Below the pieces are notes generated by a model. The model was not told the origin of the DNA and made no database searches. It was given only the letters and a program-made list of their open reading frames with translations. 24,000 nt of DNA, taken from the NCBI RefSeq assembly GCF_900105175.1, contig NZ_LT629771.1, positions 5,700,622 to 5,724,621 on the forward strand. The letters are read 5' to 3'. Every line of letters starts with the position of its first letter. The stretch's first letter is position 1. This document shows, one piece after another, positions 4,186 through 22,944 of the stretch. The position numbers and the translations under genes were made by a program. The stretch is from Jiangella sp. DSM 45060 (GTDB lineage: Bacteria; Actinomycetota; Actinomycetes; Jiangellales; Jiangellaceae).

Positions 4186-4262
4186 GGCGATCCTCCGGGG
4201 TCGGTTGGAACGATTTAATCAGCCCGCCCGACGGCGCACGCAAGAGGTTCGGGGTCGGCCAT

Positions 4263-4761: not shown

Positions 4762-4790
4762 TGGCCAATATCCAGAATTCTGGATAGTAT
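4762..4790 (+). promoter_or_regulatory. putative promoter and operator of the yhfZ-like gene; predicts a leaderless mRNA
   Basis: TGGCCA (4762-4767), a 17-nt spacer, then TAGTAT (4785-4790). The ATG at 4798 lies only 7 nt after the -10 and has no Shine-Dalgarno. A perfect 12-bp palindrome CCAGAATTCTGG (4772-4783) sits between the hexamers, and an extra TTCTGG half-site lies at 4759-4764. GC drops locally. Confidence 0.4.
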
Positions 4791-4797
4791 CCCTGCC

Positions 4798-5712: not shown

Positions 5713-5745
5713 CCCCACCCCCGAACCCCACGGACGGAGCGATGC

Positions 5746-6126
5746 ATGGACGACCGACTCCGCCTGCGCCTCGACCTCTTCCGCGACATGGCGCAGACCC
5801 CACCGGGCGTCGTCGACTTCGTGGCGAGCGAGCTCGCCCGGCTCGAACCGGACTTCGACGTCACCGACGACACCGCCGGCTCGCTCACCTCGCACCTGGT
5901 CGCCGCGCTCGGCCGGCTGCTGCGCGGTGAGCCCGACATCGACCCGCCGGCCGACGTCGTCTACCGGCAGGTCGTCGACGAGGCGCCCGCCGCCGTCGAC
6001 GCCGCGGCGCGGGTGTCCGGCCGCGCGGAAGCCGCGCTCGGCGTGCCGCTGTCCGCCGTCGAGCAGCAGTACCTCAGCCTCCATCTCGGCGCCCTCGCGC
6101 TGACCGCGACCAAGGAGAACCGATGA
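5746..6126 (+). CDS. yhfY: stand-alone PRD-domain protein (YhfY-like)
   Basis: A 126-aa ORF. GGACGGAG lies 6 nt upstream of the ATG. Two His residues sit in PRD-like contexts, TSH(50)LVAAL and LSLH(113)LGAL, 63 residues apart. The ATGA overlap with the next gene is at 6123-6126. Confidence 0.75.
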   Translation: MDDRLRLRLDLFRDMAQTPPGVVDFVASELARLEPDFDVTDDTAGSLTSHLVAALGRLLRGEPDIDPPADVVYRQVVDEAPAAVDAAARVSGRAEAALGVPLSAVEQQYLSLHLGALALTATKENR

Positions 6127-6491
6127 AACTCATCGCTGGCGGAGTTGCGAAGATCGAGGTCGCGGAGGCCCTGCGACCACTGCTCGGCCCCGACGACACC
6201 GTCGTCGTGGGCACCGACATGGACGCGGCCGTCCAGCTGCGCTCCGGCGCGGCCGACTACTACCTCGGGACGTGCCACACCGGCGCCGGCGCGAGCCTCG
6301 GCGTGCTGGTGGGCCTGCTCGGCTCGGACAAGACGCACACGTTCGGCCGGACCGTCCCGTCCGCCGCGGCGATCGAGGCCGCGGTCGACGCCGGCAACGT
6401 CGCCTTCGGCTTCGCGCTGGACCAGGTCGAGGACGTCGTGCCGGCGCTCTGGGCGGCGCTGGACGCGAGACGAACGGGGGCGGACGCATGA
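6123..6491 (+). CDS. yhfU: DUF2620 protein (YhfU-like)
   Basis: A 122-aa ORF with a strong AAGGAGAA RBS at 6110-6117. Size and position match E. coli YhfU (about 117 aa as recalled). It contains the motif YYLGTCHTGAGASLG. Confidence 0.78.
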   Translation: MKLIAGGVAKIEVAEALRPLLGPDDTVVVGTDMDAAVQLRSGAADYYLGTCHTGAGASLGVLVGLLGSDKTHTFGRTVPSAAAIEAAVDAGNVAFGFALDQVEDVVPALWAALDARRTGADA

Positions 6492-7879
6492 TCCTCGCCG
6501 CCACCGACACCGCGTCGGTCTCGTTCGACGCCTGGCAGGGCGTGCTGGTCATCGTGCTGTGCGCGTTCGCGGCGCTGATCGCGAACGCCGCGCTCGCGGT
6601 CTTCAACGACGGCGCCCGGCCGTTCCTGCTCGACTACATCCAGGGCCGGTCCACCCGGCTGGCCACCGCGACGATCGTGACGGGGCTGTCGGCCGGGTTC
6701 ATCTTCGGCCTCGGCGCGCCGATGGCGCTGTCGACCGGCGTGCTCAACCCGTGGCTGGTGTTCCTGCCGGTCGAGATCATCGGCCTGATCGCGCCGTGGC
6801 GCTGGCTCGCGGCCACCGGCGGCGCGGCCTGGGGCGCGGTCTGCGTCTTCGGCCTCAACGCCGCCAACAACGCGGCCACGTCGCTGCCGATCGACTTCGT
6901 CACGGCCCTGCAGCAGATCTCCACCCCGATCCTGTGGCTGTTCACGCTGTTCCCGGTGCTGGCGATCACCCGCCAGTTCGGCCGGGCGAAGGGCCTGATC
7001 ACGTTCGGCGCCGAGCTCGCCGTCGTGCTGCTGTCGATGAACGTCTGGGAGACCCTGTTCCCCGGGTCGCTGGCCATGGCGACCGGCGTCGTCATGCTGC
7101 TCGGGTTCGCGCTCACCCAGGACCGGTCCACCCGGCGGGCCGAGCAGCTGGTGCTGGCCGGCGGGTCCGAGGCGGACCGCGTGGCGCACGCCGAGCAGCA
7201 GGCGGCCACCGCGGCCGCGTCCGACCAGCTGTTCGGGCCCAACGCGGAGCGGCTGCGCCGGAACGTCATCCCGCTGGGCATCCTCGGCGGCATGGTCGCG
7301 GCGCTGGCGGCCAGCGGCATCTTCGGTGGCGGCGAGGCCACCAGCTTCCTCGTCGCCGACGGCACCTACGGCGAGGCCGCGCAGGTCGACTTCCTGCGCG
7401 CCTTCGGCTTCGTGCCGCTGATCGCGACGACGGCGCTGGCCTCGGGCGCGTACGCGATGGCCGGGTTCACCTTCGTCTACCCGATCGGCTACCTGTCGCA
7501 CGTCTTCATCGACGCCTGGCCGCTGGCGCTCGCGGTCGCGTTCGTGCTCGGCGCGCTGGTGATGGCCGCGGAGGTGCTGCTGCTCAGCGCCGTCGGACGG
7601 TGGCTGCAGCACTGGCCGAGCGTGCGCGAGTCGGCCGACCATATCAGGCACGCGATCACCGAGACGCTGTCGCTGGCGATCCTGGTCGGCTCGCTGATGG
7701 CCGGCCTCGCGATGGGCGGCGGACTGGGCATCGCGCTGGTCGGCGGGCTGTATCTGCTCAACGAGTCGATGGGGCGGCCGGTCGTGCGCATGGCGGCCGG
7801 ACCCGCGGCGGTCATCGTCGGCGGCATCGTGCTCAACCTGCTGCACCTGGTCGACCTCGTCCAGCCGGTGGCGGGCTGA
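6488..7879 (+). CDS. yhfT: YhfT-like polytopic membrane protein (putative transporter)
   Basis: Same frame as track ORF 6272..7879. The start is set at the ATG at 6488, which forms an ATGA overlap with the yhfU-like stop. The upstream part of the track ORF is Arg-rich out-of-context sequence. From MILAATD onward the protein is highly hydrophobic with many predicted TM spans (463 aa). Confidence 0.82.
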   Translation: MILAATDTASVSFDAWQGVLVIVLCAFAALIANAALAVFNDGARPFLLDYIQGRSTRLATATIVTGLSAGFIFGLGAPMALSTGVLNPWLVFLPVEIIGLIAPWRWLAATGGAAWGAVCVFGLNAANNAATSLPIDFVTALQQISTPILWLFTLFPVLAITRQFGRAKGLITFGAELAVVLLSMNVWETLFPGSLAMATGVVMLLGFALTQDRSTRRAEQLVLAGGSEADRVAHAEQQAATAAASDQLFGPNAERLRRNVIPLGILGGMVAALAASGIFGGGEATSFLVADGTYGEAAQVDFLRAFGFVPLIATTALASGAYAMAGFTFVYPIGYLSHVFIDAWPLALAVAFVLGALVMAAEVLLLSAVGRWLQHWPSVRESADHIRHAITETLSLAILVGSLMAGLAMGGGLGIALVGGLYLLNESMGRPVVRMAAGPAAVIVGGIVLNLLHLVDLVQPVAG

Positions 7880-9896: not shown

Positions 9897-11059
9897 TGTT
9901 CCTGGCGATGACCGAGCGGCGCAATCCCGCGCTCGTCCAGGCCGCGATCGACCTGCACCGCTCCGGCGCCGTCGAGCCGGACACGTACGTGATCGACCTC
10001 GACGCGGTGGACCACAACGCGGCCGCGCTGGCGGCGAGCGCCGCGCGGCACGGCGTCGAGCTGTGGTTCGTCGCCAAGCAGTACGGCCGCAACCCGCTGG
10101 TCACCGCCACCGTCGCGCGGCACCTGCCGCTGGCCGCGGCGATCGACCACCGCGAGGCCGTCGCGCTGCTCGGCGCCGGCGCCCGGCTGGGCAACCTGGG
10201 GCATCTGGTCCAGGTGCCGCGCCGGCGGCTGCCCGGCCTCCTCGCCGCCGAACCGGCATACGTGACGGCGGCGGACGAGCAGAACCTGACGGCCGTCGCG
10301 GCGGCCGCGCACGACCTCGGCCGGGTGCAGCCGGTGCTGCTGAAGATCCGCGGCGCGGCGGAGTCGACGTTCCCCGGCCAGGACGGCGGCTTCGAGCCTG
10401 ACGACGTCGCCGGGGTGCTCGAGCGCGCCGCCCGGCTGGACGGCGTCCGCGTCGCCGGAGCGACCGGCTTCCCCTGCCTGAGCTTCGACGCCGGCGCCGG
10501 GCGGCCGCGGCCCACCGGCACCCTCGACCGCGTGCTCGCCGCCGCCGCGACGATGCGGGCGGCCGGCCTCGACCCGGTGCTGTCGCTGCCCAGCCACACC
10601 AGCGTCAGCACGATCCCGCAGATCGCGCGGCTCGGCGGCGCCGTCGGCGAGCCGGGTCACGCGCTCACCGGCACGACGCCCGAGCACGCCGTCGACGCCG
10701 CTCTGGCCGAACGTCCGGCGCTGGTGTACGTCTCGGAGATCGCCCAGCTCGGCTCCGCGCCGAGCGTCTTCGGCGGCGGCTTCTACAGCCGCGGCCGGGC
10801 CCGCGACCTGCTCGTCGCCACCGGCGGCGGAGTGCGCCGGGCGACGCTGCGCGACACCCCGGCGGGCAGCATCGACTACTACCGCCGGTTCGACTGGAGC
10901 GGCGACGGCGACGGCGCGCGGGTCGGCGACACCGCCGTCATGGCGTTCCGCACGCAGATCTTCGTGACCCGCTCCCGGGTGGCCGTGGTCGCCGGGATCG
11001 AGGCGGGACGGCCGCGTGTGGAGGGCGTGTTCGACGCGCTGGGGAGCCGGGTCGCGTGA
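9896..11059 (+). CDS. yhfX: alanine-racemase-N-domain (fold-type III) PLP enzyme, YhfX-like
   Basis: This is the C-terminal 387 aa of track ORF 9059..11059. The start ATG at 9896 shares its A with the preceding TGA. The candidate PLP lysine is in WFVAKQYGRNP. The length equals E. coli YhfX as I recall it (387 aa). Confidence 0.85.
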   Translation: MFLAMTERRNPALVQAAIDLHRSGAVEPDTYVIDLDAVDHNAAALAASAARHGVELWFVAKQYGRNPLVTATVARHLPLAAAIDHREAVALLGAGARLGNLGHLVQVPRRRLPGLLAAEPAYVTAADEQNLTAVAAAAHDLGRVQPVLLKIRGAAESTFPGQDGGFEPDDVAGVLERAARLDGVRVAGATGFPCLSFDAGAGRPRPTGTLDRVLAAAATMRAAGLDPVLSLPSHTSVSTIPQIARLGGAVGEPGHALTGTTPEHAVDAALAERPALVYVSEIAQLGSAPSVFGGGFYSRGRARDLLVATGGGVRRATLRDTPAGSIDYYRRFDWSGDGDGARVGDTAVMAFRTQIFVTRSRVAVVAGIEAGRPRVEGVFDALGSRVA

Positions 11060-12300
11060 GCCCCTCCGCGACCGTCCTCGTCCTCGACGGCTTCGGCGTG
11101 GGCGCGCTGCCCGACGCCGCCACCGTCCGGGCGTCGGACACCGCGGCCGACACCGTCGGCGCCGTCGCCGCGTGGTCGGTGCGCGAGCGGGGCCGGCCGC
11201 TGGACGTGCCGCACCTGGCCGGGCTGGGGCTGGCGGCGCTCCGCCCGGACCTGCGCGACCTGCTCGCCGTCCCGGTCCCGCTGCTGCGCGCGACCGGCGC
11301 CCGGGCCGGGCTCGGCTACCCCGGCGCGGACTCCTTCGCCGGTCACCAGACCCTCATGGGCGCCGACATGTCGCACGTCGTGCTGTGCCGGCTGGCCGAG
11401 CGGATCGACGAGGTGACGGCTGCGCTGCGGGCCCGCGGGCACCGGGTGCGGACGCTGGACGACCGCCCCGTCCTGGTGGTCGACGACGCCGCGCTCGTCC
11501 ACGACAACCTCGAGGCCGACCCCGGCCTGAACTGGAACGTCTCCGCCCGGCTGGACGACCTCGGCTTCGCCGCGATCCTGGCGATCGCGCAGGTGGTGCG
11601 CGCCGTGGCGCCGGTGGCCCGCGTCATCGCCGTCGGCGGGCGCTCCGAGCGGCCGCTGGCCGACGCCGTCCGCCCCGGTCCCGGCGGCACCGTCGGGCTG
11701 GACACCCCCGCCAGCGGGTTCTACCGCAACGGCGGGCTGCGGGTCCGGCACCTCGGCGCGCCGGTCGACCACGCCCGCCAGCTGCACGAGGCGGCGGCGC
11801 GCGCCGGCCACGACGTCGTCCTCATCGGGAAGGCCGCCGACCTGCTGGTGACCGACGCGCCCGTCGACCGCCGTCCGGGCGTCGACACCGCCGCGATCCT
11901 CGCCGACGTCGCGGCGACCGCCGGGCACGGGCTGGTCGTGGCGAACGTGCAGCGGACCGACCTCGCCGGGCACTCCCAGGACGCGGCCGCCTTCGCCGAT
12001 CAACTGGAGGCGGCCGACCGCGCCCTCCCCCGCGTCGCCGGACGGCTCGGCCCGCGCGACCTGCTGGTCGTCACCGGTGACCACGGCAACGACCCCGCCA
12101 TCGGGCACCCCTTCCACACCCGCGAGTGGGTGCCGGTGCTGGCCGCAACCGGCGGCGCCCCCTCGACCCGCCGCGGCCACGATCTCGCCTCCCTCGCCGA
12201 CGTCGGCGCGACGGTCGCGCGGTGGCTCGGTCTCCCGGCCGGCGCCACCGCCGTCGGCGTCGCCGCCGCCGCGCAGGACCTACCCGTGGGCGGCCGGTAG
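11056..12300 (+). CDS. yhfW: phosphopentomutase-like metalloenzyme of the alkaline-phosphatase superfamily, YhfW-like
   Basis: A 414-aa ORF with a GTG start that forms a GTGA overlap with the yhfX-like stop. Metal-ligand-type motifs are present: [22 protein letters not shown] and HTREWVPVL. Confidence 0.85.
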
Positions 12301-13287
12301 CTCGGCGAAGTGGCAGGCGCTCGGGTGCAGGCCGAGCCGGGGCTCGAGGGCGGGCTCGACGTCGGCGCACTCGTCCCGGGCCTTCCAGCAGCGGGTCCGG
12401 AACCGGCAGCCGGACGGCGGGTCGGCCGGTGAGGGGACGTCGCCGGTGAGGAGGATGCGCTCGCGCGGCGGCTGGCTCCACGGCCGCGGCACCGGGACGG
12501 CGGAGAGCAGCGCCTGGGTGTATGGGTGGGTGGGCCGCCGGAAGATCTCCTCCTGCTCGGCCAGCTCGACCACCTTGCCCGCGTACATGACGGCGACCCG
12601 GTCCGAGACGTGACGGACGACGGAGAGGTCGTGGGCGATGAAGAGGTAGGTGAGGCCGAGGTCGGCCTGCAGGTCGGCGAGCAGGTTGAGCACCTGCGCC
12701 TGGATCGACACGTCCAGGGCCGACACCGCCTCGTCGCAGATGACGAGCTTGGGCCGCAGCGCCAGCGCGCGGGCGATGCCGAGGCGCTGCCGCTGACCGC
12801 CGGAGAACTGGTGCGGGTAGCGGTCGGCGTGGCTCGGGTCGAGGCCGACCCGGGCGAGCAGGTCGCGCACCTCGTCGCGCCAGCGGTCGCGCGGCACGAC
12901 GCCGGGGTGGATCTCCCAGGCCTCGGCGACGATCTGGCCGGCGGTGCGGCGCGGGTTCAGCGACGAGTACGGGTCCTGGAAGATCATCTGGACGTCGCGT
13001 CGCGCGGCGCGCAGCTCGGCCGGCGACGCGGCGGTGAGGTCGCGGCCGTCGAAGGTGACGGTGCCCGACGCGGCCCGCTCCAGCCCGATCACCGTCCGGG
13101 CCAGCGTCGACTTGCCCGACCCCGACTCACCCACCAGCCCGAGCGTCTCGCCGCGGCGCAGGTCGAAGGAGACACCGGCGACGGCCTGCACGTGGCCGGT
13201 GACCCGCCGCAGCAGCGCCGAGCGCAGCGGGAACGTCGTGTGCAGGTCGCGCACCGACAGCAGCGGCTCAGACCCGTTCGCGCTCAC
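12280..13287 (-). CDS. oligopeptide/dipeptide-type ABC transporter ATP-binding protein (DppF/OppF-like)
   Basis: Same frame as track ORF 12280..13455, with the start moved to the GTG at 13287 ([15 protein letters not shown]). It has Walker [10 protein letters not shown], the signature LSGGQRQR, Walker B LVICDE and a C-terminal Cys-rich oligopeptide-ABC tail. It overlaps the upstream ATPase gene by 20 nt. Confidence 0.9.
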
Positions 13288-14278
13288 CCGACACCACCTC
13301 CTCGGCGTGGTGGCACGCGGCCCGGTGCTCGGCCGGCCGCCCGTCGACGGCGCGCAGGGCGGGGTCGTCGGCGCGGCACCGGTCGGTGGCGTATGGACAG
13401 CGTGGATGGAAGGAACAGCCGGACGGCAGCGCCAGCAGGTTCGGCGGCGCGCCACGCACCGGCGTCAGCCGCTCGCGCGGCCCGTCGAGGTCCGGGATCG
13501 ACGCCATCAGGCCGCGGGTGTAGGGGTGGGCGGCATGGTCGTAGACCTCGCGGATGGCGCCGGTCTCGACCGCCCGCCCCGCGTACATGAGCAGCGCCCG
13601 GTCAGCGACGTCGGCGACCACGCCGAGGTCGTGCGTGATCAGCACGAGCGCCATGCCCTCCTCGCGGCGCAAGTCCGCCAGCAGCCGCATGATCTGCGCC
13701 TGGACGGTGACGTCGAGCGCCGTCGTCGGCTCGTCAGCGATGAGCAGGCGGGGCCGCAGCGCGAGCGCCATCGCGATCATGATCCGCTGCCGCATGCCGC
13801 CGGAGAACTGGTGCGGGAAGTCGTCGACCCGCCGCCCGGCGGCCGGGATGCCGACCCGCTCCATCAGCTCGACGGCGGCGGCGCGCGCAGCCCGGCGCGA
13901 GGCGCCGCGGTGCCGCCGGAACATCTCGCCGATCTGCCAGCCGACCCGGAACACCGGGTTCAGCGAGCTGAGCGGGTCCTGGAAGACCATCGCGATCTCG
14001 TCACCGCGCAGCCGCCGGACCCGGTTCGGGTCCTCGGTCAGCAGGTCGCGTCCGTCGTAGACGATGCTGCCGCCGGCGATCTCGCCGGCCGGCTTGGGCA
14101 GGATCCCCATGACGGCCTGGGCGGTGACGCTCTTGCCGCTGCCGGACTCGCCGAGGACGGCCAGCGTCTCGCCCCGGCGCACATCGAACGACACCCCGTC
14201 GACGGCTCGGACGACGCCGCCGCCGGTGCGGAAGCGCACGGCGAGGTCGCGCACGCTGAGCAGTGGACTCTCCGTCAC
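13268..14278 (-). CDS. oligopeptide/dipeptide-type ABC transporter ATP-binding protein (DppD/OppD-like)
   Basis: A 336-aa ORF with a GTG start. It has Walker [10 protein letters not shown], the signature FSGGMRQR, Walker [13 protein letters not shown] and a C-terminal [14 protein letters not shown] motif. Confidence 0.92.
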
Positions 14279-14285
14279 GGCCGCC

Positions 14286-15191
14286 TCACAGGTTCTTCAG
14301 CTTCGGGTCGAACCGGTCCCGCAGCGCGTCGCCGAGCAGGCCGAACGACACGACCAGCAGCGCGAGGCAGATACCGGGGATGGTGGAGATCCACCACGCG
14401 TCGCCCAGGTAGTTGCGCCCGTTCGCGATGGTGACGCCCCAGCTCGGCGAGCTGGACGGGGTACCGAGGCCGAGGAAGCTCAGCGACGCCTCGGCCAGGA
14501 TGACGTGCCCGATCTCGACCGTCGCGACCACCAGCACCGGCGCCGCGCAGGCCGGCAGCACGCAGTGCCGCACCAGGTGCCACGACCGCGCGCCCAGCGT
14601 CCGGGTCGCGTCGACGAAGTCGCGGTTCTTCGTGACCAGCACCTGACTGCGGGCCACCCGCGCGAACGTCACCCAGTTCGAGATGGCCAGAACGATGACG
14701 ACGTTGACGACGCTCGGCCCGAGCAGCGCGGCGATGAAGATCGCCAGCAGGATCGACGGGAACGTGAGCTGGACGTCGGCCAGCCGCATCAGCGCGCCGT
14801 CCAGCCACCGTCCGTACCACCCGGCCACGACGCCGACGGTGACGCCGATCAGCCCGGCCAGCAGCAGCGTCGCGACGCCGACCGCGATGGAGATGCGCGC
14901 GCCCTGGAACACCTGCGCGAGCAGGTCCTGGCCCACCTGGTCGGTGCCGAAGATCGCCAGCGAGCCGTCCTCGGTGCGCGAGCCGGGCGGCAGCAGCCGG
15001 TCGCCGGTGCTCGTCGCGACCGGGTCGTAGCCGACCAGCCACGGCCCGAACACCGCCGCGAGCACGTAGAGGGCGATGACGGCGCTCGCGAACCGGATGC
15101 GCCCGGAACCGGGCTTGCGCCTGGGGCGGCCAGCAGCCTCGGGGACGGGGGCGGCCGGCGGGCTGCCGAGGTCGGTCAGTGTGTCGGTCAT
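14286..15191 (-). CDS. ABC transporter permease (DppC/OppC-like)
   Basis: A 301-aa ORF with multiple TM segments, N-terminal and core features of the binding-protein-dependent transport family, and an EAA-loop-like EASLSFLGLG. Confidence 0.92.
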   Translation of the reverse strand: MTDTLTDLGSPPAAPVPEAAGRPRRKPGSGRIRFASAVIALYVLAAVFGPWLVGYDPVATSTGDRLLPPGSRTEDGSLAIFGTDQVGQDLLAQVFQGARISIAVGVATLLLAGLIGVTVGVVAGWYGRWLDGALMRLADVQLTFPSILLAIFIAALLGPSVVNVVIVLAISNWVTFARVARSQVLVTKNRDFVDATRTLGARSWHLVRHCVLPACAAPVLVVATVEIGHVILAEASLSFLGLGTPSSSPSWGVTIANGRNYLGDAWWISTIPGICLALLVVSFGLLGDALRDRFDPKLKNL

Positions 15192-15194
15192 GGG

Positions 15195-16118
15195 TCACCC
15201 GGCCAATCGCACGCGGGGGTCGAGGTAGCCGTACAGGACGTCGACGACGAGGTTCACCAGCACGAACACCGCGGCGATGAACAGCACGGCGGCCTGGACG
15301 ACGCCGTAGTCGCGGTGCGAGATCGCGTCGACCAGCAAGCGCCCGACGCCGGGCCAGGCGAACACCGTCTCGACGATGACGGTGCCGCCGAGCAGCTGGC
15401 CGAACTGCAGGCCGACCACCGTCACGACCGGGATCAGCGCGTTGCGGGCGGCGTGCGGGAAGATCACGACGCTCTCGCGCAGCCCCTTCGCGCGCGCCGT
15501 CTGCACGTAGCCCTCGTGGATGACCTCGAGCAACCCGCTGCGGGTCAGCCGGACCAGGATGGCCAGGAACGGCAGCGCCAGCGTGACCGCCGGGAGCACC
15601 AGGTGCTGCCAGCCGCCGGTGCCGCCGCTGGGCAGCACGTCCAGCGTCCGGGCGAACACCAGGATGAAGACGATGCCGACCCAGAACGCCGGCGTCGACT
15701 GCCCCACCAGCGACAGCACCGAGATGACGCGGTCGGTCAGCGTGTTGGCCTTGAGCGCCGCGATGACGCCGAGCGGGAAGCCGATGAGGATCGACAGCGT
15801 GAGCGCGGCGATCGCCAGCTCGGCGGTGTTCGGCAGCCGCGACAGGACGAGGTCCATGGCGTCGACGTTCATCCGGAACGAGTCGCCGAAGTCCAGCCTG
15901 ACGACGTCGCGCAGGTACGTGCCGTACTGGACGATCAGCGACTCGTCCAGGCCCATCCGCTCGCGCAGCTGGGCGATCTGGTCGGCGGTCGCGTCCGGCC
16001 CGAGCAGCACGGTCGCGGGGTCGCCGGGCACCAGCCGCAGCACCACGAAGATGACCGAGACGGCGCCCCACAGGACGAAGACGGAGAACAGCAGCCGGCG
16101 CGCGAGGTAGGCCGGCAT
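15195..16118 (-). CDS. ABC transporter permease (DppB/OppB-like)
   Basis: Same frame as track ORF 15195..16196. The start is set at the ATG at 16118 (MPAYLARRLLFSVFVLWG, the canonical DppB N-terminus), which forms an ATGA overlap with the IclR stop. Confidence 0.92.
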   Translation of the reverse strand: MPAYLARRLLFSVFVLWGAVSVIFVVLRLVPGDPATVLLGPDATADQIAQLRERMGLDESLIVQYGTYLRDVVRLDFGDSFRMNVDAMDLVLSRLPNTAELAIAALTLSILIGFPLGVIAALKANTLTDRVISVLSLVGQSTPAFWVGIVFILVFARTLDVLPSGGTGGWQHLVLPAVTLALPFLAILVRLTRSGLLEVIHEGYVQTARAKGLRESVVIFPHAARNALIPVVTVVGLQFGQLLGGTVIVETVFAWPGVGRLLVDAISHRDYGVVQAAVLFIAAVFVLVNLVVDVLYGYLDPRVRLAG

Positions 16119-16885
16119 CAGGCGCCCTGCGCGTGCGCCAGGACGGTCACCGGCGGCGCCTCGTCCAGCAGGCCGGCGCCGATGCGGTCGGCGCACGCCG
16201 TGACGGCGGCGGCCAGGCCGCGTAGCTCGGCCGGGTGCCGTACCCGCGACGGGACCCGGACGGCGACGGCGGCGACCGCCAGCCCGTCGTGGTCGAGCAC
16301 CGGGGCCGCGACGGCCCGCCCGGTCTCGGCGTACTCACGGTCCTCGACGGCGTAGCCGCAGGTCCGCGCCCGGGCCAGGGACCGGAGCAGGCCGTAGGCG
16401 TCGGTGACGGTGCGGGCGGTGAGCCGCGGGAACGGCGCCCGCGCCACGAACCGGTCGACCTCGACCCGGGGGCGGTGCGCGAGGTAGGCCTTGCCCAGCG
16501 CCGTCGCGTGCATCGGCAGCGGCGACCCCGGGTCGGCCGCGGGCTGGCCGGCGGTCGCCGTCCGCACCAGGTGCCCGCCGCGGGGTCGGCCGTAGCTGAC
16601 CGCCTGGCCGGTGCTCTCGTGCAGCGCGCTCAGCGCCGGGTGGACGACGGAGTCGGGCCCGGCGTCGCCGCGGGCGGCCCGGGCGAGGTCGAGCGCGCCC
16701 AGGCCCACGACGTACCGGTTGGCCTCGTCGCGGCGGACCAGGCCGAACTCGACGAAGGTCGCGAGCATCCGGTGGACGGTGCTCTTGTGCAACCCGACGG
16801 CGTTGGTGATGTCGGTCAGCGTGCGCGGGTGGCCGTGCCGGCTCAGCTCGGTCAGGACTTCGAGGGCGCGGCTCAGCGACTTCAT
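16118..16885 (-). CDS. IclR-family transcriptional regulator
   Basis: A 255-aa ORF. The N-terminal HTH is SLSRALEVLTELSRHGHPRTLTDITNAVGLHKSTVHRMLATF, followed by an IclR-type effector domain. It is the first gene of the permease/ATPase operon. Confidence 0.92.
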   Translation of the reverse strand: MKSLSRALEVLTELSRHGHPRTLTDITNAVGLHKSTVHRMLATFVEFGLVRRDEANRYVVGLGALDLARAARGDAGPDSVVHPALSALHESTGQAVSYGRPRGGHLVRTATAGQPAADPGSPLPMHATALGKAYLAHRPRVEVDRFVARAPFPRLTARTVTDAYGLLRSLARARTCGYAVEDREYAETGRAVAAPVLDHDGLAVAAVAVRVPSRVRHPAELRGLAAAVTACADRIGAGLLDEAPPVTVLAHAQGA

Positions 16886-16960
16886 CGATCACTCACCCCT
16901 GTGCACTCGTCGGGTGGTTCGGCGTCGTTACATTAACGTTAACGGTAGCGTTCATGGGCG

Positions 16961-16990
16961 ACGCTAGAGGACGGCCCAGAACGGTGTCAA
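16961..16990 (-). promoter_or_regulatory. putative promoter of the IclR-dppBCDF operon
   Basis: Reverse strand reads TTGACA (rc of 16985-16990), an 18-nt spacer, then TAGCGT (rc of 16961-16966). It is embedded in the 13-mer AACGGTGTCAAGG (16980-16992), the exact inverted partner of 17051-17063. Confidence 0.4.
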
Positions 16991-17052
16991 GGGTCGGCTC
17001 AGCGAATGGGTGAACCTGCTGGTCAGCCGGGTTGCGAGGGATGCAACGCGCC

Positions 17053-17082
17053 TTGACACCGTTGTTCCGTGAACGTTAACGT
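17053..17082 (+). promoter_or_regulatory. putative promoter of the unknown two-gene module
   Basis: TTGACA (17053-17058), an 18-nt spacer, then TAACGT (17077-17082). The -10 overlaps the palindrome ACGTTAACGT. This arrangement mirrors the reverse-strand promoter. Confidence 0.4.
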
Positions 17083-17145
17083 CCGAACTGGCGCAGGCCG
17101 TTGGAATTCATCTGTGAAGCGGCCCCCATTCGCGAGGAGGCGACT

Positions 17146-18111
17146 TTGTCCGTCGATACTGCAGGCGATATGACCGGCCAGTTCAGGAGGGCCCTCGTGG
17201 CGGCCGATCCGCGCCTGTCGAAATTCAATCCGCTCGGCCGCATCCTCGCGCACGACGACTTCGACTCCGGCACCCACGGCTGGTGCGAACTGATCGGCAA
17301 CTACGACGGCAACGGCAACCTCGACACCGTCGACGACCACATGCGCGACTTCCGCCCGCCGCAGCTGAGCGCCTGCAATTTCTTCGACATCGGCACCCAC
17401 GGCACGCTCGGCGGCACGTACGCCCTGAAACTGGCCACGCGGCCGTATCCGGGGCACACCGCGGTCGCCATCCGCCGTCTGACGATGAGCGGGCGCGGCC
17501 GAGTGCAGCTGGAGACGTACTTCACCTTCAAGGCCGAGGCCACGCTGGGTTCCGACCCCGCCAACGACACGTTCGGCGAGGTCGTGTGGGACGGCAACCT
17601 GCACCCGTCGGAGGCCCAGTTCGGCGCGCTGACGGTGGCCACCGACCTGTGCGGCGACGGCGGCGTCCGCTACCACACCGTCGCGCGCTACCAGAACACC
17701 GACCACCAGCACCGGCTGACCCGGCAGTGGATGTACCCGGGGGTGCCCGAGCCGACGCCGCGCGAGCACCTCGAGGGCAAGGTGAAGCTGGGCTACGCGG
17801 CCGACTTCACGGCGCCGAACCCGGAGGACTGGCACCCGTTCGGCGAGCCCCAGGAACTCTGCTACAACGAGGTCCCGACGAAGGTGAACTGGCATTATCT
17901 GCGGTGGGTCGTCGACACCGCCGCGCGCAAGAACGTCGAATTGCAGATCAACGACCGGGTCATGGACATGAGCGATGTCCCGGTGCCGATCTACGAAGAC
18001 CGGTACGAGTCGTTGGAGAATCTGCTGAACTTCTATTTCAGTGTGCGCACGCATTCGTCGGTGCGCAATTTCCTGTACCTGGACTCCGTTCTCGTCTCGG
18101 TGGATTGGTAG
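17146..18111 (+). CDS. conserved-looking hypothetical protein, probably a cytoplasmic beta-sandwich/jelly-roll-like fold; function unknown
   Basis: Same frame as track ORF 17101..18111. The preferred start is the TTG at 17146, 5 nt after GAGGAGG (17134-17140); the ATG at 17170 is an alternative. It has strong GC3 bias and a balanced amino-acid composition rich in W/Y/F/N/K. The antisense 424-aa ORF, by contrast, is Arg/Val/Gly-rich. I recognise no family motif. Confidence 0.75.
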   Translation: MSVDTAGDMTGQFRRALVAADPRLSKFNPLGRILAHDDFDSGTHGWCELIGNYDGNGNLDTVDDHMRDFRPPQLSACNFFDIGTHGTLGGTYALKLATRPYPGHTAVAIRRLTMSGRGRVQLETYFTFKAEATLGSDPANDTFGEVVWDGNLHPSEAQFGALTVATDLCGDGGVRYHTVARYQNTDHQHRLTRQWMYPGVPEPTPREHLEGKVKLGYAADFTAPNPEDWHPFGEPQELCYNEVPTKVNWHYLRWVVDTAARKNVELQINDRVMDMSDVPVPIYEDRYESLENLLNFYFSVRTHSSVRNFLYLDSVLVSVDW

Positions 18112-18118
18112 GCACACG

Positions 18119-18454
18119 ATGCGGCAATCGCTGACCGCTGTACTCGAGCGGAACACCACGGTGCGGGGCGAGTTCGCGACCGAGCCGTACGAGGTCGCGT
18201 GGGCGTCCGAGGCGCGCTGGTTCGTCCAGGTGCTGTCGGCCGCCGGCGACCCGGCCGAGCTGGACGTCGTCACGCAGATCTCACCCGACGGCATCACCTG
18301 GTGCGATCACGAGGAGGCGCCACACGCCACGGCGGGTCCGGGCCTGACCAGCTGGACGGTGCGCGAGTTCGGCCACTGGCTGCGTCTGCGCGGACGCGTC
18401 CGCGGCGACGACGCCGAGGTTAAGCTGCGCGTGTACCTGGCGGCCAAGAGCTGA
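18119..18454 (+). CDS. small hypothetical protein (111 aa), partner of the preceding gene
   Basis: This is the internal Met of track ORF 18041..18454, lying 7 nt after the upstream TAG (18109-18111). The sequence MRQSLTAVLERNTTVRGEFATEPYEVAWASEARWFVQVL...ITWCDHEE...LRVYLAAKS has a protein-like composition and GC3 bias. Confidence 0.62.
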   Translation: MRQSLTAVLERNTTVRGEFATEPYEVAWASEARWFVQVLSAAGDPAELDVVTQISPDGITWCDHEEAPHATAGPGLTSWTVREFGHWLRLRGRVRGDDAEVKLRVYLAAKS

Positions 18455-18492
18455 GAGCCCGCTGTGGCCGGCAACACGAGAACGAGGACACG

Positions 18493-19530
18493 GTGACCGA
18501 CACCCGCAGGGCGCGGCTGCGCGACATCGCCACCGCCCTGGGCGTGTCGGTCAACACCGTCTCACGGGCGCTGGGCGGCAAGGACAGCGTCAGCGAGCAC
18601 ACCCGCGAGCGCATCATCGCCGAGGCCGAGCGCATCGGCTACGTGCCCAACACGCACGCGCGCTCGCTCGTGCTCGGCTCGGCCATGACCATCGGGCTGG
18701 TCATCACCAACCCGTCGAACCCGTTCTACGCCCAGCTGATCAACGGCATCGAGCCGCACGGCCGCGGGCGCGGCTACTCGCTGCTGCTCATGGTCACCGA
18801 CGAGAGCGTCGAGAACGAGCGGCGGGCGGCGGAGTCGCTGCTGCGCTCGGCCGTCGACGGCGCCATCGTCGTGCCGGTGCAGGGCGAAACCGCGCACTGG
18901 ACGCGGGTGCAGGCGGCCGGCGTGCCGATCGTGTTCGCCAACCGCGACGTGCCCGAGCTGGGCTGCGACTTCGTCGGCATCGACAACGAGCACGGCGCCT
19001 ACGAGTCCACCCGGCACCTGATCGCGTCCGGAGCCCGGCGCATCCAGGTGCTCGAGGAGGACCTCCCGATCACCACGATCGCCGGGCGCATCGCCGGCTT
19101 CCACCTGGCCATGGCCGACGCCGGCCTGCCCAGCTCCGACGCCGACGTCATCTCGGTGCCGACCCGCCGGCACGACTCCGCCGTCCTGCCGTGGCAGCCG
19201 GCCGAGGCGTACCGGCTGGCCCGCGAGCTGGTCGCCGGCGACGACCGTCCCGACGCCGTCGTGGCGGGCAACGACTTCTTCGCGCTCGGGCTGTACCGCG
19301 CGCTGGCCGAGCGCGGGCTGCGCGCCCCGGGCGACCTCGCGATCGTCGGCTACGGCGACCACCCGTACGCGGCGTACATGGATCCGCCGCTGACGACGGT
19401 GCACCTGCCGGCCCGCCGCATCGGCGAGACCGCCGTCGACCTGCTGCTGCGCCGTCTGCGCGACGGCGCCGACGCCGCGCCGCGCAAGCAGCGGCTGACG
19501 CCCGAGCTGGTCGTCCGCGCCTCCACGTGA
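18493..19530 (+). CDS. LacI-family transcriptional regulator
   Basis: A 345-aa ORF with a GTG start after GAGGA. The HTH is ARLRDIATALGVSVNTVSRALGGKDSVSEHTRERIIAEAERIGYVPN, followed by a periplasmic-binding-protein-like sugar-binding core. Confidence 0.93.
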   Translation: MTDTRRARLRDIATALGVSVNTVSRALGGKDSVSEHTRERIIAEAERIGYVPNTHARSLVLGSAMTIGLVITNPSNPFYAQLINGIEPHGRGRGYSLLLMVTDESVENERRAAESLLRSAVDGAIVVPVQGETAHWTRVQAAGVPIVFANRDVPELGCDFVGIDNEHGAYESTRHLIASGARRIQVLEEDLPITTIAGRIAGFHLAMADAGLPSSDADVISVPTRRHDSAVLPWQPAEAYRLARELVAGDDRPDAVVAGNDFFALGLYRALAERGLRAPGDLAIVGYGDHPYAAYMDPPLTTVHLPARRIGETAVDLLLRRLRDGADAAPRKQRLTPELVVRAST

Positions 19531-19563
19531 ACGGACCCGCCGGCTGCGCGCCGGCGGGTCCGT
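19531..19563. terminator. bidirectional intrinsic-terminator-like hairpin between convergent genes
   Basis: ACGGACCCGCCGGC (19531-19544), loop TGCGC, then GCCGGCGGGTCCGT (19550-19563), giving a perfect 14-bp GC-rich stem. It lies exactly between the lacI-type stop (19530) and the SBP stop (19580). No clear U-tract follows. Confidence 0.6.
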
Positions 19564-19579
19564 CAGTCCGTCTCCCGGG

Positions 19580-21124
19580 TCAGTACACCTCGGCGGCCTC
19601 GCCGGTGACCGACACCTCGTGGAAGCGGGCCCGGCCGTTGGCCGGCATCTCGAACCCCTCGACGCGCTCGCGGTATGCGACGTTGTTGCCGAGGTCCATC
19701 GGGAAGATGCCGACCGCCTGCTCCCAGATCAGCGTCGCGGCCTGCTCGTACAGCGTGGCGCGCTCCTCCGGGTCCAGTGCCGACTTCGCCGCCAGCAGCA
19801 GCTGGTCCAGCTCCTCGCTGCAGAACCCGTTGCGGTTCGCCTCGCACGTGTAGAGCCGGCCGAGCGTGTAGTCGGCGTCACCGGTGCCGACGCTGTTGGT
19901 CTGCAGGTTCAGGTCCCAGCTCAGCGCGTTGAGGTCGTCGATCCACTGGGCCCGCTCCTTCTCCAGCGGCTCGACCGTGATGCCGACCTCGGCCCAGTGC
20001 GACATCAGCGTCTGCGCGAGCGCGCGGATGTTCGCGCCGGACTCGCGCGGCCACTGCAGCGTCGTGCTGAAGCCGTCGGGGTAGCCGGCCTGGGCCAGCA
20101 GCTGCCGAGCCAACTCCGGGTCGTACTCGTACGGCTGCTGCTCGCTGGCGCCGAAGACGTCCTGCGGGATCGGGCCGCGCGCCACCGTCGCGGCGTCGCC
20201 GAACAGGTCGGCCACGATGGTCTCGACGTCGACGGCGTGCCACATCGCCTGCCGCACCCGCGGGTCGGTGAACGGCTCGCGGCTGGAGTTGAACCACATG
20301 AAGTAGTACGTGTAGCTGGGCGACGTCTCGAAGACGATGTCGTCGTTGTCCTGGATCGACGGCGCCTGGTCCGGCGGCACGCCGGTCGTGAGGTCGACCT
20401 CGCCCGTCTCCAGCGCGGTCAGGCGGGCGGAGATCTCCGGAATGTAGGTGAACTCCAGCCGGTCCAGTTCCGGCGCGCCGCCCCAGTAGTCCTCGTTCGC
20501 GGTCATCACGACCCGCTCGTCGGGCAGGAACTCGTCGAACACGAACGGCCCCGAGCCCACCGGCGCCCGCCAGAAGTCCGCCTCGCCGATGCGGTCGGCC
20601 GGGCCGACGAACAGCAGCGAGACGGTGCTGATCACGGTGCCCAGTGGCTGCGCCGTCCGGATGGTCACGGTGTGCTCGTCGGTCGCCTCGATCGCCGCGA
20701 CGCCCGCCCACAGCGGCGCGAGCGGCCCGTTCAGCTCGATCAGCCGCTCCGCCGACGCCTTGACGTCGGCCGCCGTGAGCGGGGTCCCATCGTGGAACGT
20801 GACGTCGTCGCGCAGGTGGAAGACCCAGGTCAGGTCGTCGGGGTTCTCCCACGACTCGGCCAGGACCGGGACGAACTCGCCGTCCTCCAGGCGGACCAGC
20901 GGGTCGAGCAGGTGCTGGACGATCTCTTGGACGCCCTCCTCGGCGGACTGCTCGCCGTGCGGGTCGAGCGAGACCGGCGCCACACTTGGCGCGACGCGGA
21001 GCACCTGGTCACCACCGCCCCCGGCCGCGCCCTCGTCGTCGTCCCCTCCGCAGGCGGCGAGGGCCACGGCCAGGACGGCCGCGAGCCCCAGTGCCAGCGG
21101 ACGGTGTGCCCGGCTGCGCATCAT
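19580..21124 (-). CDS. ABC transporter substrate-binding lipoprotein, family 5 (peptide/nickel/opine type, DppA/OppA-like)
   Basis: Same frame as track ORF 19580..21436. The start is set at the ATG at 21124 (MMRSRAHRPLALGLAAVLAVALAACGG, a signal peptide with lipobox LAAC), preceded by GGAGAA. This ATG forms an ATGA overlap with the upstream EEP stop. The protein is 514 aa with a typical SBP_bac_5 length and composition. Confidence 0.92.
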   Translation of the reverse strand: MMRSRAHRPLALGLAAVLAVALAACGGDDDEGAAGGGGDQVLRVAPSVAPVSLDPHGEQSAEEGVQEIVQHLLDPLVRLEDGEFVPVLAESWENPDDLTWVFHLRDDVTFHDGTPLTAADVKASAERLIELNGPLAPLWAGVAAIEATDEHTVTIRTAQPLGTVISTVSLLFVGPADRIGEADFWRAPVGSGPFVFDEFLPDERVVMTANEDYWGGAPELDRLEFTYIPEISARLTALETGEVDLTTGVPPDQAPSIQDNDDIVFETSPSYTYYFMWFNSSREPFTDPRVRQAMWHAVDVETIVADLFGDAATVARGPIPQDVFGASEQQPYEYDPELARQLLAQAGYPDGFSTTLQWPRESGANIRALAQTLMSHWAEVGITVEPLEKERAQWIDDLNALSWDLNLQTNSVGTGDADYTLGRLYTCEANRNGFCSEELDQLLLAAKSALDPEERATLYEQAATLIWEQAVGIFPMDLGNNVAYRERVEGFEMPANGRARFHEVSVTGEAAEVY

Positions 21125-22137
21125 GGCTTCTCCAATGTGTAGGTGACGACCACCGGCTTGTGGTCGGAGGGCGCGACGCCCTCGTGGAAGAACTCGACGA
21201 CCTCGGCGCAGCGCGGCCGCAGCGGACCGCGGTGGAACTGCCAGTCGATCGCCTTGGCGACTGGCTCCGGTGCGGCCCAGCCGGGGCGGGGGCCGGTGCC
21301 GGGGCCCGGCAGCGGCACGACCGGGTGCGTGATCGGCGAGCTGCGGCCCAGCGCCGCGAACGCGTCGGCGAACCCGGCCTCGCGCAGCACCCACAACGGC
21401 CGCGCGTAGTCGTTGACGTCGGCGGTGAAGATGCACGGCCCGTCGCCGGCCAGCCGGTCCAGCGCGGCGACGATGTTGCGGGCCTGCCCGACCCGCGGAC
21501 TCACGTCGTCGGCGCGCTCCTGCGGATGGCCGGGCCAGGTCAGGTGGGCCGTGGCGTAGACGAACGCGCGAGTCTGTCGGTGCCCGCCCGTAGGGTGGGG
21601 GCCCTCCCGGCCGGGCGGGGTGTCACTCCCGGCGAACGCGACGTCATCCGGGCCGAGCGAGGCGTCGGTGGCGCCGAGCGAGCGAGTCTGTCGGTGCCCG
21701 CCCGTAGGGTGGGGGCCCTCCCGGCCGGGCGGGGTGTCACTCCCGGCGAACGAAGCGTCGCGCGAGCCGGGCGGGGTGTCACTCCCGGCGAACGCGGCGT
21801 CAACCGGCTCTGACGTGGCGCGGGTGCGCAGCCGCACCCAGAAGAGCCGCGCATGCTCGGCCCTGATGCCGACGTCCTCGGCGCCGTGCTCCTCCGGCGT
21901 GAACAGGTCGTCGCGCCACCAGAGGTTGCTCTGCGTGCTCCAGCCCGGGAACGGGTCGTCCACCCGGCGGTGACCAGGCAGGGCGGCGTCGATGAGCTCG
22001 CGCAGGCGCGGCGTCAGCTCCTGGACGGACAGCAGGTCGGGCGGGCGGACCTCGAACAGCGACCGCAGCGCCGGCACGCGCGCGTCCAGGTGGTGGCCGC
22101 CCCAGAGGTTGCAGGTCATCGACACGAACGTGGTCAC
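21121..22137 (-). CDS. endonuclease/exonuclease/phosphatase (EEP) family protein carrying an in-frame repeat insertion
   Basis: A 338-aa ORF with a GTG start that forms a GTGA overlap with the upstream stop. EEP motifs are present: SMTCNLWGG, LSVQELTP, IFTADVND and the C-terminal APSDHKPVVV. About 95 aa between RLRTRA and FVYATAHL are encoded by the repeat array and have no EEP counterpart. Confidence 0.85.
   Translation of the reverse strand: MTTFVSMTCNLWGGHHLDARVPALRSLFEVRPPDLLSVQELTPRLRELIDAALPGHRRVDDPFPGWSTQSNLWWRDDLFTPEEHGAEDVGIRAEHARLFWVRLRTRATSEPVDAAFAGSDTPPGSRDASFAGSDTPPGREGPHPTGGHRQTRSLGATDASLGPDDVAFAGSDTPPGREGPHPTGGHRQTRAFVYATAHLTWPGHPQERADDVSPRVGQARNIVAALDRLAGDGPCIFTADVNDYARPLWVLREAGFADAFAALGRSSPITHPVVPLPGPGTGPRPGWAAPEPVAKAIDWQFHRGPLRPRCAEVVEFFHEGVAPSDHKPVVVTYTLEKP
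21569..21638. repeat. hairpin repeat, full copy 1 (inside the EEP CDS)
   Basis: CGAGTCTGTCGGTGCCCGCCCGTAGGGTGGGGGCCCTCCCGGCCGGGCGGGGTGTCACTCCCGGCGAACG. It is 70/70 identical to copy 2, which lies 114 bp (38 codons) away. Confidence 0.85.
21683..21752. repeat. hairpin repeat, full copy 2 (inside the EEP CDS)
   Basis: Identical to 21569-21638. Both copies encode FAGSDTPPGREGPHPTGGHRQTR in the EEP reading frame. Confidence 0.85.
21767..21794. repeat. hairpin repeat, truncated copy 3 (internal-deletion derivative)
   Basis: CCGGGCGGGGTGTCACTCCCGGCGAACG matches the 3' 28 bp of the full copies. It is preceded by GCGAG, as the full copies are, so it looks like a copy that lost the central ~40 bp. 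It lies 42 bp (14 codons) from the equivalent point in copy 2. Confidence 0.75.
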
Positions 22138-22877
22138 GCGGTCCTCCTCGCGGCAGCGACGTCATCGTCCGCCGCGGCCGGCCCGGCGGCCGCCAAGGCC
22201 TGTCCGAGCGGATCGTGGTTGTAGCCGGCCAGCCGCCGCGCGAGCGTCGCCCCGTCCGGCCCGACCAGGACGGACAGCTCGGTCACCGAGCAGTTGCCGG
22301 GCGGCTCGAGCAGGGCGTGGCCGCCGGCCGGCAACCCCATGGCCGCGGCGACGGCGACCCGGATCGGCCCGCCGTGGGTGAAGACCAACGCGACCGGCTC
22401 GGCGGCGAGCCGACCGGCCAGCTCCCGCAGCGCAGCGTCGACCCGGGCGGTCAGTTGGGCGAACGTCTCGCCGCCGCCGCGCGGGAGGTCCTCGCCGCGG
22501 CGGATCGCGGCGATCTGCTCGGGGTACGCGGCCGCCACCTCGGCGGTGGTGCGGCCGCTCCACTCGCCGTTGTCGATCTCGCGCAGCCGCGGGTCGGTGA
22601 CGACGGCGGACGGAGCGAGGTCCAGGTAGGCGGCGGCGGTCTCGGTGACCCGCGGGAGGTCGCTGACAGCGACGGCGCCGACCCGCGGGTGGTGGTCGCG
22701 CAGCCACCGCGCGACCGTCGCCGCCTGGTCGCGGCCGCGGCCGGACAGTCCCGGCCCGAGCTGCCCCTGGATGCGGCCCTCCGCGTTCCACGTCGATTCG
22801 CCATGCCGGATCAGCACCAGACGCACCCGGCGGGCGCCGTCCACCGCCGGCTCGTCGACCTGCCATCTCGCGTTCAC
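22134..22877 (-). CDS. histidine phosphatase family protein (phosphoglycerate-mutase-like)
   Basis: Same frame as track ORF 22134..23159. The start is placed at the GTG at 22877 (VNARWQVDEPAVDGARRVRLVLIRHGESTWN). It has the RHG catalytic motif and a second His in FTHGGPIR. The upstream part of the track ORF is low-complexity and overlaps the divergent gene. Confidence 0.82.
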   Translation of the reverse strand: MNARWQVDEPAVDGARRVRLVLIRHGESTWNAEGRIQGQLGPGLSGRGRDQAATVARWLRDHHPRVGAVAVSDLPRVTETAAAYLDLAPSAVVTDPRLREIDNGEWSGRTTAEVAAAYPEQIAAIRRGEDLPRGGGETFAQLTARVDAALRELAGRLAAEPVALVFTHGGPIRVAVAAAMGLPAGGHALLEPPGNCSVTELSVLVGPDGATLARRLAGYNHDPLGQALAAAGPAAADDDVAAARRTA

Positions 22878-22907: not shown

Positions 22908-22944
22908 GGGCAACGCGGTTCCGCCCTGTGCAACCGCGTTGCCC
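22908..22944. promoter_or_regulatory. perfect 13-bp inverted repeat in a divergent intergenic region (candidate operator)
   Basis: GGGCAACGCGGTT (22908-22920), an 11-nt spacer, then AACCGCGTTGCCC (22932-22944). It lies between the histidine-phosphatase operon start (22877, -) and the LTD gene start (23002, +), so it is not positioned as a terminator. Confidence 0.45.

Follow-up and report, generated by a model that had tools for sequence, protein, structure and literature searches.

The concanavalin-A-like (ConA-like) fold, the curved beta-sandwich of glycoside hydrolase family 16 (GH16; clan GH-B) and of the L-type lectins, is also predicted for the product of gene A, which together with gene B forms the pair described here. 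Both genes lie in a stretch of 24,000 nucleotides from Jiangella sp. DSM 45060 (NCBI RefSeq assembly GCF_900105175.1, contig NZ_LT629771.1, positions 5,700,622 to 5,724,621 of the forward strand), analysed at its full length, hereafter referred to as the window, and numbered from its first nucleotide. However, A has no sequence similarity to GH16 and no ExDx(x)E motif, is predicted to be cytoplasmic where GH16 enzymes are secreted, exceeds them in length by about 80 residues, has clade-specific insertions and always has a separate small partner. A functional precedent is provided by DUF2961, a jelly-roll domain of unknown function, cytoplasmic in some members and encoded beside solute-binding proteins, ATP-binding cassette (ABC) transporters and FGGY kinases, which proved to be a glycoside hydrolase family, GH172 (PMC8812541). 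We claim no homology with this family, in which two jelly rolls are fused in one chain and the proteins form trimers, whereas A and B are separate polypeptides of unequal size belonging to another sequence family.

Small eight-stranded jelly rolls like that predicted for B are present in the C-domain of XepA and in YomS, two proteins of Bacillus prophage lytic cassettes that form pentamers and have a lysis-related role (PMC6834076). Identity to B is only 10–15% and, unlike XepA and YomS, the B genes have no phage context. The logic of the locus resembles that of the acc (agrocinopine) locus of Agrobacterium, in which an Opp-type ABC transporter and the binding protein AccA import a sugar phosphodiester, AccF, a cytoplasmic phosphodiesterase, and AccG, a phosphatase, process it, and a product is sensed by a repressor (PMC4526662). 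AccA is among the relatives of the window's binding protein in the PDB (E 4e-36). Components of the same types (family-5 binding protein, Opp-type ABC transporter, candidate phosphodiesterase and candidate phosphatase) are found both in Kribbella and in the window. Their enzymes, however, are not from the AccF and AccG families: those of the window are a protein with an endonuclease/exonuclease/phosphatase (EEP) fold and a histidine phosphatase. Its regulators are of the IclR and LacI families instead of AccR, and the acc locus lacks a DUF6772 pair.

Pair, repressor and probable operators

The pair and the elements associated with it are listed below; promoter elements were assigned by eye on the actinobacterial TTGACA / TANNNT pattern.

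17146/17170–18111, + strand: gene A, DUF6772 protein, predicted to be cytoplasmic; the open frame extends back to 17101
18119–18454, + strand: gene B, 111-aa partner, predicted single eight-stranded jelly roll, borderline for Pfam DUF6385
18493–19530, + strand: LacI/RbsR-PurR-like repressor (Pfam LacI and Peripla_BP), third constant gene of the unit
16931–16944: palindrome O1, operator-like, CATTAACGTTAACG, in the part of the divergent region nearer the IclR/ABC operon, an exact match to the consensus CRTKAACGTTMAYG
17068–17081: palindrome O2, operator-like, CGTGAACGTTAACG, which overlaps a −10-like hexamer (TAACGT, of the TANNNT pattern) in the gene A promoter, by eye
16980–16992 and 17051–17063: 13-nt perfect inverted repeat, AACGGTGTCAAGG / CCTTGACACCGTT, in the IclR/gene A intergenic region, arms 58 nt apart

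In the window, the TAG of gene A is separated by 7 nt from the ATG of gene B at 18119, and the TGA of gene B by 38 nt from the GTG of the LacI gene at 18493. We compared 82 loci (80 species genomes and two Glutamicibacter assemblies), mostly from Actinomycetota and including two from Chloroflexota, and found gene B 5–21 nt downstream of gene A in all of them. Metagenomic members in which A has 42% and 31% identity also have a B partner (hhalign probabilities of 99.9 and 99.7), and the pair is also carried by four alphaproteobacterial megaplasmids; in the distant metagenomic and alphaproteobacterial members, the stop and start codons of A and B overlap or abut. Microlunatus speluncae has a second, paralogous pair (L083 7328–9896; a DUF6772 protein and a 106-aa protein), co-transcribed behind a major facilitator superfamily (MFS) transporter. 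This second pair is divergent from the canonical pair-plus-LacI unit, and genes for a 1426-aa Metallophos/5'-nucleotidase protein and a secreted Endonuclease_1 protein lie nearby.

Because B directly follows A in every locus of the sample, in the distant members and in the second Microlunatus copy, A and B form an obligate pair, the simplest view being that they are the two subunits of a single entity. The preliminary description of the window had presented the two genes as a module, and the strictness of the synteny in other genomes bears this out. In the neighbourhood census, which covered loci of at least 15 kb (71 loci, 25 genera), a LacI regulator accompanies the pair in 70 loci and in all 25 genera, usually directly 3' of B or 3' of B and a binding-protein gene. 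Genuine genes that are translated together, A and B form, with the LacI/RbsR-like repressor immediately downstream, a three-gene unit constant in at least 25 genera. The module had been described as bracketed by IclR and LacI regulators, with LacI 38 bp downstream and an ABC importer alongside. These positions and family assignments hold (Pfam), but the LacI gene is more than a bracket, being the third constant member of the unit. The IclR regulator is lineage-specific (5 genera). The LacI protein is nearest to RbsR and PurR, with scores below the equivalog cut-offs.

The probable operator of this repressor is the 14-bp palindrome CRTKAACGTTMAYG, which across the loci is confined to the region preceding gene A and is strongly enriched there. 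With two mismatches allowed, it has four matches in the window, against 0.36 expected, all within the IclR/gene A intergenic region. At least one site of this type is present in 66 of the 82 loci, and exactly two in 54. A single 250-nt bin just upstream of gene A contains 127 of the 172 AACGTT cores in 1.6 Mb of loci, and this core is common to the known RbsR and PurR operators. LacI-repressed catabolic operons have a palindrome with CG at its centre as the operator, located in the promoter region of the regulated genes and conserved alongside the regulator, and a palindrome of this kind was found here. Both arms of the inverted repeat AACGGTGTCAAGG / CCTTGACACCGTT carry TTGACA facing outward; read by eye, they are probably the mirrored −35 boxes of two divergent promoters, but the repeat may alternatively be an IclR binding site. 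Scans of 16850–19650 for sigma-70 consensus promoters and intrinsic terminators yielded nothing.

Gene A probably starts at TTG 17146, giving a protein of 321 aa; this start is favoured because GAGGAGG is located 5 nt upstream and 321 aa is the modal length of the homologues. The alternative, ATG 17170, gives a 313-aa form, as annotated by NCBI for the Jiangella alba protein, and TTG 17101 is merely the earliest possible start. The open frames at 17101–18111 and 18119–18454 have the clear coding bias attributed to them in the preliminary description, with GC contents per codon position of 0.63/0.43/0.92 (gene A) and 0.71/0.53/0.90 (gene B). The bin with the lowest GC content in the window, 17001–17500 (0.656, versus a mean of 0.739), is indeed at the 5' end of the locus, and gene A has an overall GC content of 65.8%, with 73.9% for the window. 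A foreign origin was considered for gene A on these grounds and rejected, because the dip comes from codon positions 1 and 2 and leaves the third position (GC3) unaffected. The ratio of nonsynonymous to synonymous substitution rates (dN/dS), calculated against the orthologues from two other Jiangella species and Phytoactinopolyspora, was low rather than around 1 for both gene A (0.06–0.09) and gene B (0.07–0.17), indicating that both are under purifying selection. As described before, neither A nor B has a signal peptide or transmembrane segment (maximum Kyte-Doolittle 19-residue means of 0.51 and 0.75, respectively), and both are predicted to be cytoplasmic.

The product of gene A matches the entire profile of DUF6772 (PF20562; positions 1–284 of 284, 428.2 bits, E 1.8e-128), well above the gathering cut-off of 27 bits, and is 99% identical to the NCBI entry 'DUF6772 family protein [Jiangella alba]'. 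The match of B to DUF6385 (PF19912; positions 18–81 of 82, E 1.6e-5) scores 25.3 bits, for a cut-off of 26.8 bits, and 32 of 120 gene B orthologues among the matches listed have a precomputed PF19912 match. We identified 895 homologues of gene A, with 70–86% identity across actinobacterial orders, and 647 of gene B. In every comparison, A was the most conserved protein of the locus (71–84%, versus 44–70% for LacI). An exhaustive search with the DUF6772 hidden Markov model yielded only 252 matches, mostly fragments, among 1.84 billion cluster representatives (50% identity), and the family is therefore small and compact. This search revealed no informative domain fusion of the Rosetta-stone type; the single 441-aa match looks chimeric.

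There is no NCBIfam model for A or B, and no PHROG or PADLOC family matched either protein. Searches of the PDB with phmmer returned only noise for both, and profile searches with a divergent alignment of A and an alignment of B gave no match even at E = 10. Literature searches for DUF6772, DUF6385, PF20562 and PF19912 found no relevant paper in the library covered. The preliminary description had called the pair the part of the window least explained by family knowledge. Pfam, NCBIfam, phmmer and the PDB profiles revealed no homology to a characterised family, but the larger protein was already catalogued. The window genes are ordinary members of a catalogued, uncharacterised family, and not outliers.

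Predicted folds and possible function

The AlphaFold2 model of A (pLDDT 84.5, pTM 0.86) has an N-terminal helix followed by a large beta-sandwich, for which Foldseek against the PDB recovered the ConA-like lectin/glucanase fold (E about 1e-5, TM scores of 0.3–0.5). The preliminary guess of a lectin/LamG-like beta-sandwich thus proved apt. The best matches were the X122 domain of Teredinibacter (TtX122B), GH16 O-glycanases, Emp46p/47p, legume lectins and calreticulin. The GH16 structures concerned were 6t2p/6t2o and 5dxd, an Rv0315-like glucanase (E 2.5e-5 to 5e-4, TM 0.31–0.44), and the L-type lectins matched at the level of the fold were Emp46p, FRIL, PAL and VIP36. Two gene A homologues bear the UniRef name 'GH16 domain-containing protein'. 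Membership of GH16 was nevertheless rejected for A, despite the common fold, as the catalytic motif is missing and a Pfam scan down to E = 1 returned only DUF6772 and one spurious match, with no GH16, DUF1080 or lyase family.

The model of B (pLDDT 92.3) is a single jelly roll of eight strands. Its closest solved relative according to Foldseek is the C-domain of XepA (TM 0.65, root-mean-square deviation 3.5 over 111 columns), other matches being YomS, PirA, a Cry1Ac domain, TNF-like proteins and the N-domain of the BC2L-C lectin. There are also many matches to uncharacterised phage proteins, with TM scores of up to 0.85. Given these relatives, and as XepA is cytotoxic (PMC6834076), the pair could be thought of as the remnant of a phage or toxin module, or a domesticated one, acting as a lysis factor or binary toxin with no part in nutrient uptake. 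We consider this highly improbable, as the context largely refutes it: none of the loci examined contains phage genes, transporters and sugar regulators constantly accompany the pair, its GC3 is at the level typical for the host and purifying selection extends across two phyla. Moreover, A resembles neither PirB nor the N-domain of XepA, and the PHROG and PADLOC searches argue in the same direction.

The positions of A conserved down to 25–30% identity (numbered according to the 313-aa form) are D29, F31, G37, W38, G75, R103, E115, D159, R167, Y174, N176, W187, Q228, N233, K238, W241 and Y243, and such a combination of polar and aromatic side chains is characteristic of clefts that bind sugars or catalyse reactions. 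Our tentative preference is for A and B as a two-subunit cytoplasmic enzyme that cleaves carbohydrates and acts on an imported solute, which we regard as possible. Glycosidic-type cleavage is the most economical guess because glucanases are among the proteins with this fold, the importers belong to the type that takes up oligomeric or conjugated solutes, and no other enzyme of these operons could split a conjugate. The earlier suggestion that the pair is tied to the adjacent transporter as a binding or processing module fits the synteny, with an importer and a sugar-type regulator invariably alongside in two phyla.

In this reading, the repressor would bind the CRTKAACGTTMAYG palindromes, keeping the A-B-lacI operon and the divergent IclR-ABC importer operon silent as long as no sugar-like effector is present. 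The imported solute would be a small carbohydrate conjugate, in Actinobacteria probably phosphodiester- or phosphate-linked, with a sugar or polyol, and it would be trimmed by secreted enzymes of the phospholipase D (PLD) or PhoD type, or in the cytoplasm by the EEP and histidine-phosphatase enzymes. The A-B complex would then cleave the glycosidic (or comparable) bond, a step for which the locus has no recognised enzyme. The ConA-like subunit A would supply the cleft (R103, E115, D159, R167, Y174, N176, W187, Q228, N233/E234, K238, W241 and Y243), and the jelly-roll subunit B would be a structural or substrate-binding accessory. The freed sugar or polyol might then be oxidised, by a zinc-dependent dehydrogenase or a short-chain dehydrogenase/reductase (SDR), and phosphorylated by an FGGY kinase, or else dehydrated by an MR/MLE enzyme.

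The same folds are compatible with a non-catalytic, lectin-like cytoplasmic pair, with a role in sensing, in buffering by sequestration or as an accessory factor that modulates, for instance, the LacI protein or the importer and leaves the solute unaltered. Lectins (Emp46p/47p, legume lectins, calreticulin and ERGIC-53) make up most of the structural neighbours of A, and those of B are binding or assembly jelly rolls (the BC2L-C lectin N-domain, TNF-like proteins and proteins of the phage tail-fibre type). Such a pair would accord with the absence of a known catalytic motif from A and with the constant presence of a repressor in the operon, and the very high conservation of A is compatible with extensive protein-protein surfaces. 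However, about 15 polar residues conserved throughout the family cluster on consecutive strands, which is more typical of an active-site cleft, and the operons would otherwise have no enzyme to split a conjugate delivered by importers of the oligosaccharide or oligopeptide type. In Alphaproteobacteria, the pair lies amid catabolic enzymes under FadR/GntR, making a LacI-specific partner role unlikely. In bacterial catabolic operons, it is unusual to find a cytoplasmic lectin that has no enzymatic function. We therefore consider a purely binding pair unlikely.

Also rather doubtful, to a similar degree, is an enzyme other than a glycosidase. Candidates are isomerases, epimerases and mutarotases, lyases whose substrate would be a keto sugar produced through oxidation by the neighbouring dehydrogenase, and enzymes acting on phosphodiesters. 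Such an activity is suggested by the dehydrogenase itself (Zn-dependent or SDR), the accessory enzyme common to the actinobacterial and alphaproteobacterial contexts, and the conserved residues R103, R167 and K238 could serve to bind a phosphate or carboxylate group. Polysaccharide lyases and the '3-keto-disaccharide hydrolase' family, DUF1080, likewise have ConA-like folds, but these families, absent from the Pfam scan, were not among the top 50 Foldseek matches either. Mutarotases and sugar isomerases encoded in such operons usually consist of one small protein with a different fold, and nothing positively separates a non-glycosidase from a glycosidase.

Several observations weigh against the carbohydrate-cleaving enzyme that we favour. 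The likeness of the predicted structure of A to known proteins is at the level of the fold only, and mostly to non-catalytic lectins. The GH16 catalytic motif E-[ILV]-D-[IVAF]-[VILMF](0,1)-E has no match in A, in strict or loose (E.D..?E) form, and E115 is the sole acidic residue strictly invariant across the divergent family. We infer a physical complex of A and B from the coupling of their genes only. The operator motif was not found in the MFS-type loci, the LacI proteins of which are only 44–47% identical. The PDB relatives of the family-5 binding protein are mixed (a protein of unknown specificity, GsiB, HbpA, AgaA, DppA and AccA) and permit no substrate call, and no accessory enzyme reached an NCBIfam equivalog cut-off. 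Finally, the alphaproteobacterial loci have no phosphoesterases, so the idea of a phospho-conjugate may be valid for only part of the family.

A more specific proposal, which we hold to be unlikely, is that DUF6772 and its 110-aa partner constitute an unrecognised two-subunit family of cytoplasmic enzymes of the CAZy type that cleaves an imported glycosyl- or polyol-phosphate conjugate, such as teichoic-acid-like fragments or opine-like sugar phosphodiesters. It would define a widespread salvage pathway under LacI control in the Actinobacteria of soils, of which the Alphaproteobacteria would have a variant for sugar acids. We found no description in the literature of the obligate pairing, of the attached repressor and operator, or of the recurrent context of phosphoesterases and polyol enzymes. 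DUF6772 is one of many catalogued families with no assigned function, and it has now become a concrete experimental target because of its constant small partner, its own repressor and operator, and its uptake loci with no recognised glycosidase. If the pair is an enzyme, it would represent a new carbohydrate-active family and help to explain the use of phosphate-linked sugar and polyol compounds by soil actinomycetes; a binding pair would amount to a cytoplasmic lectin system of an unusual kind. On present evidence, this is not a surprising new kind of system, but the experimental path is clear.

Transporters and accessory genes

The neighbours of the unit in the window are the following.

16118–16885, − strand: IclR-family regulator (Pfam HTH_IclR and IclR_C), first gene of the divergent ABC operon
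12280–16196, − strand: Opp/Dpp-type ABC importer (Pfam BPD_transp_1, OppC_N, ABC_tran and oligo_HPY)
15195–16196 and 14286–15191, − strand: ABC permeases
13268–14278 and 12280–13464, − strand: ABC ATPases
19580–21142, − strand: family-5 solute-binding lipoprotein of the importer (Pfam SBP_bac_5, E 6e-95), convergent with the LacI gene
21121–22161, − strand: EEP-fold protein (Pfam Exo_endo_phos, 30 bits), candidate cytoplasmic phosphodiesterase
22134–22866, − strand: histidine phosphatase (PGM-like, branch 1; Pfam His_Phos_1, E 3e-47), candidate phosphomonoesterase

The family-5 binding protein has a lipoprotein signal (…LAVALAAC, lipobox LAAC), as expected of a Gram-positive ABC binding protein, and its true start is probably one of the ATG codons just inside the listed GTG. 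The EEP gene holds an equivalent position in 21 loci, mostly from Kribbella. In the window, it contains a degenerate 21-nt tandem repeat at 21604–21802 (about 9 copies, 62% match) encoding 'AFAGSDTPPGREGPHPTGGHRQTR'-like segments, which lengthens the protein by about 80 aa (346 aa, versus 262–265 aa in Kribbella). The PDB relatives of the histidine phosphatase include phosphoserine phosphatase and glucosyl-3-phosphoglycerate phosphatase. Assignment of a substrate from the binding protein, the EEP protein, the histidine phosphatase, the LacI protein, the zinc-dependent alcohol dehydrogenase (Zn-ADH), the FGGY kinase or the MR/MLE enzyme was attempted and abandoned, the nearest relatives being mixed in specificity.

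The genes most often found near the pair, by number of genera out of 25, encode an Opp-type ABC transporter (20), a family-5 binding protein (18), a histidine phosphatase (13), a secreted PLD-like protein (12), an MFS metabolite symporter (9), a Zn-ADH (7) and an FGGY kinase (7). The EEP-fold protein and PhoD also recur as accessory genes in Actinobacteria. In the annotated neighbour clusters, which do not include some small ones that were never scanned, there is no recurrent glycoside hydrolase of a recognised kind. The transporter and accessory enzymes vary between lineages, whereas the A-B-LacI unit is constant.

In Kribbella, the genes for the IclR regulator, two permeases, two ATPases, the histidine phosphatase, the EEP protein and the family-5 binding protein are contiguous on one strand and divergent from A-B-lacI. 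In the window, the block of histidine-phosphatase, EEP and binding-protein genes is located beyond A-B-lacI, and the order is the same in other Jiangella and Phytoactinopolyspora loci (L001, L002, L008 and L034). The importer was correctly described beforehand as split in the window, but the comparison with the contiguous run of Kribbella, and the occurrence of the split order in all four of these loci, identify the split as a rearrangement in Jiangella/Phytoactinopolyspora. The window has no CRTKAACGTTMAYG site upstream of the histidine-phosphatase, EEP and binding-protein unit. A second 13-nt perfect inverted repeat, GGGCAACGCGGTT ... AACCGCGTTGCCC (− strand; 22908–22920 and 22932–22944), lies between the histidine-phosphatase gene and a divergent gene for a secreted protein with a lamin-tail domain, and is a candidate operator for this unit.

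The alphaproteobacterial loci are organised differently, with FadR/GntR and an MR/MLE acid-sugar dehydratase, CUT1 sugar permeases, A, B and an SDR, in that order, and with an additional SMP-30 lactonase in Rhizobium sp. Q54. On the four megaplasmids concerned (L088–L091), there are two adjacent genes for family-1 solute-binding proteins and, in three of the four, no ATPase gene; a UgpC-type ATPase is present only in Rhizobium sp. Q54 (L090).

Other features of the window

A 466-aa open reading frame (10879–12279, − strand), directly downstream of the ABC ATPase genes, has an unusually high GC content at codon position 1 (0.92), with a GC3 of 0.87. It has no Pfam match and no counterpart in the 82 related loci, and may be a lineage-specific gene or no gene at all. 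Outside the conserved DUF6772 neighbourhood, at 1597–7879, a GH78 alpha-L-rhamnosidase gene (1597–4218, − strand) adjoins the gene for a YhfZ-like regulator (4636–5712), which is followed by a 137-aa open reading frame with no Pfam match (5713–6126) and the gene for a YhfT-like membrane protein (6104–7879), forming a poorly understood cluster.

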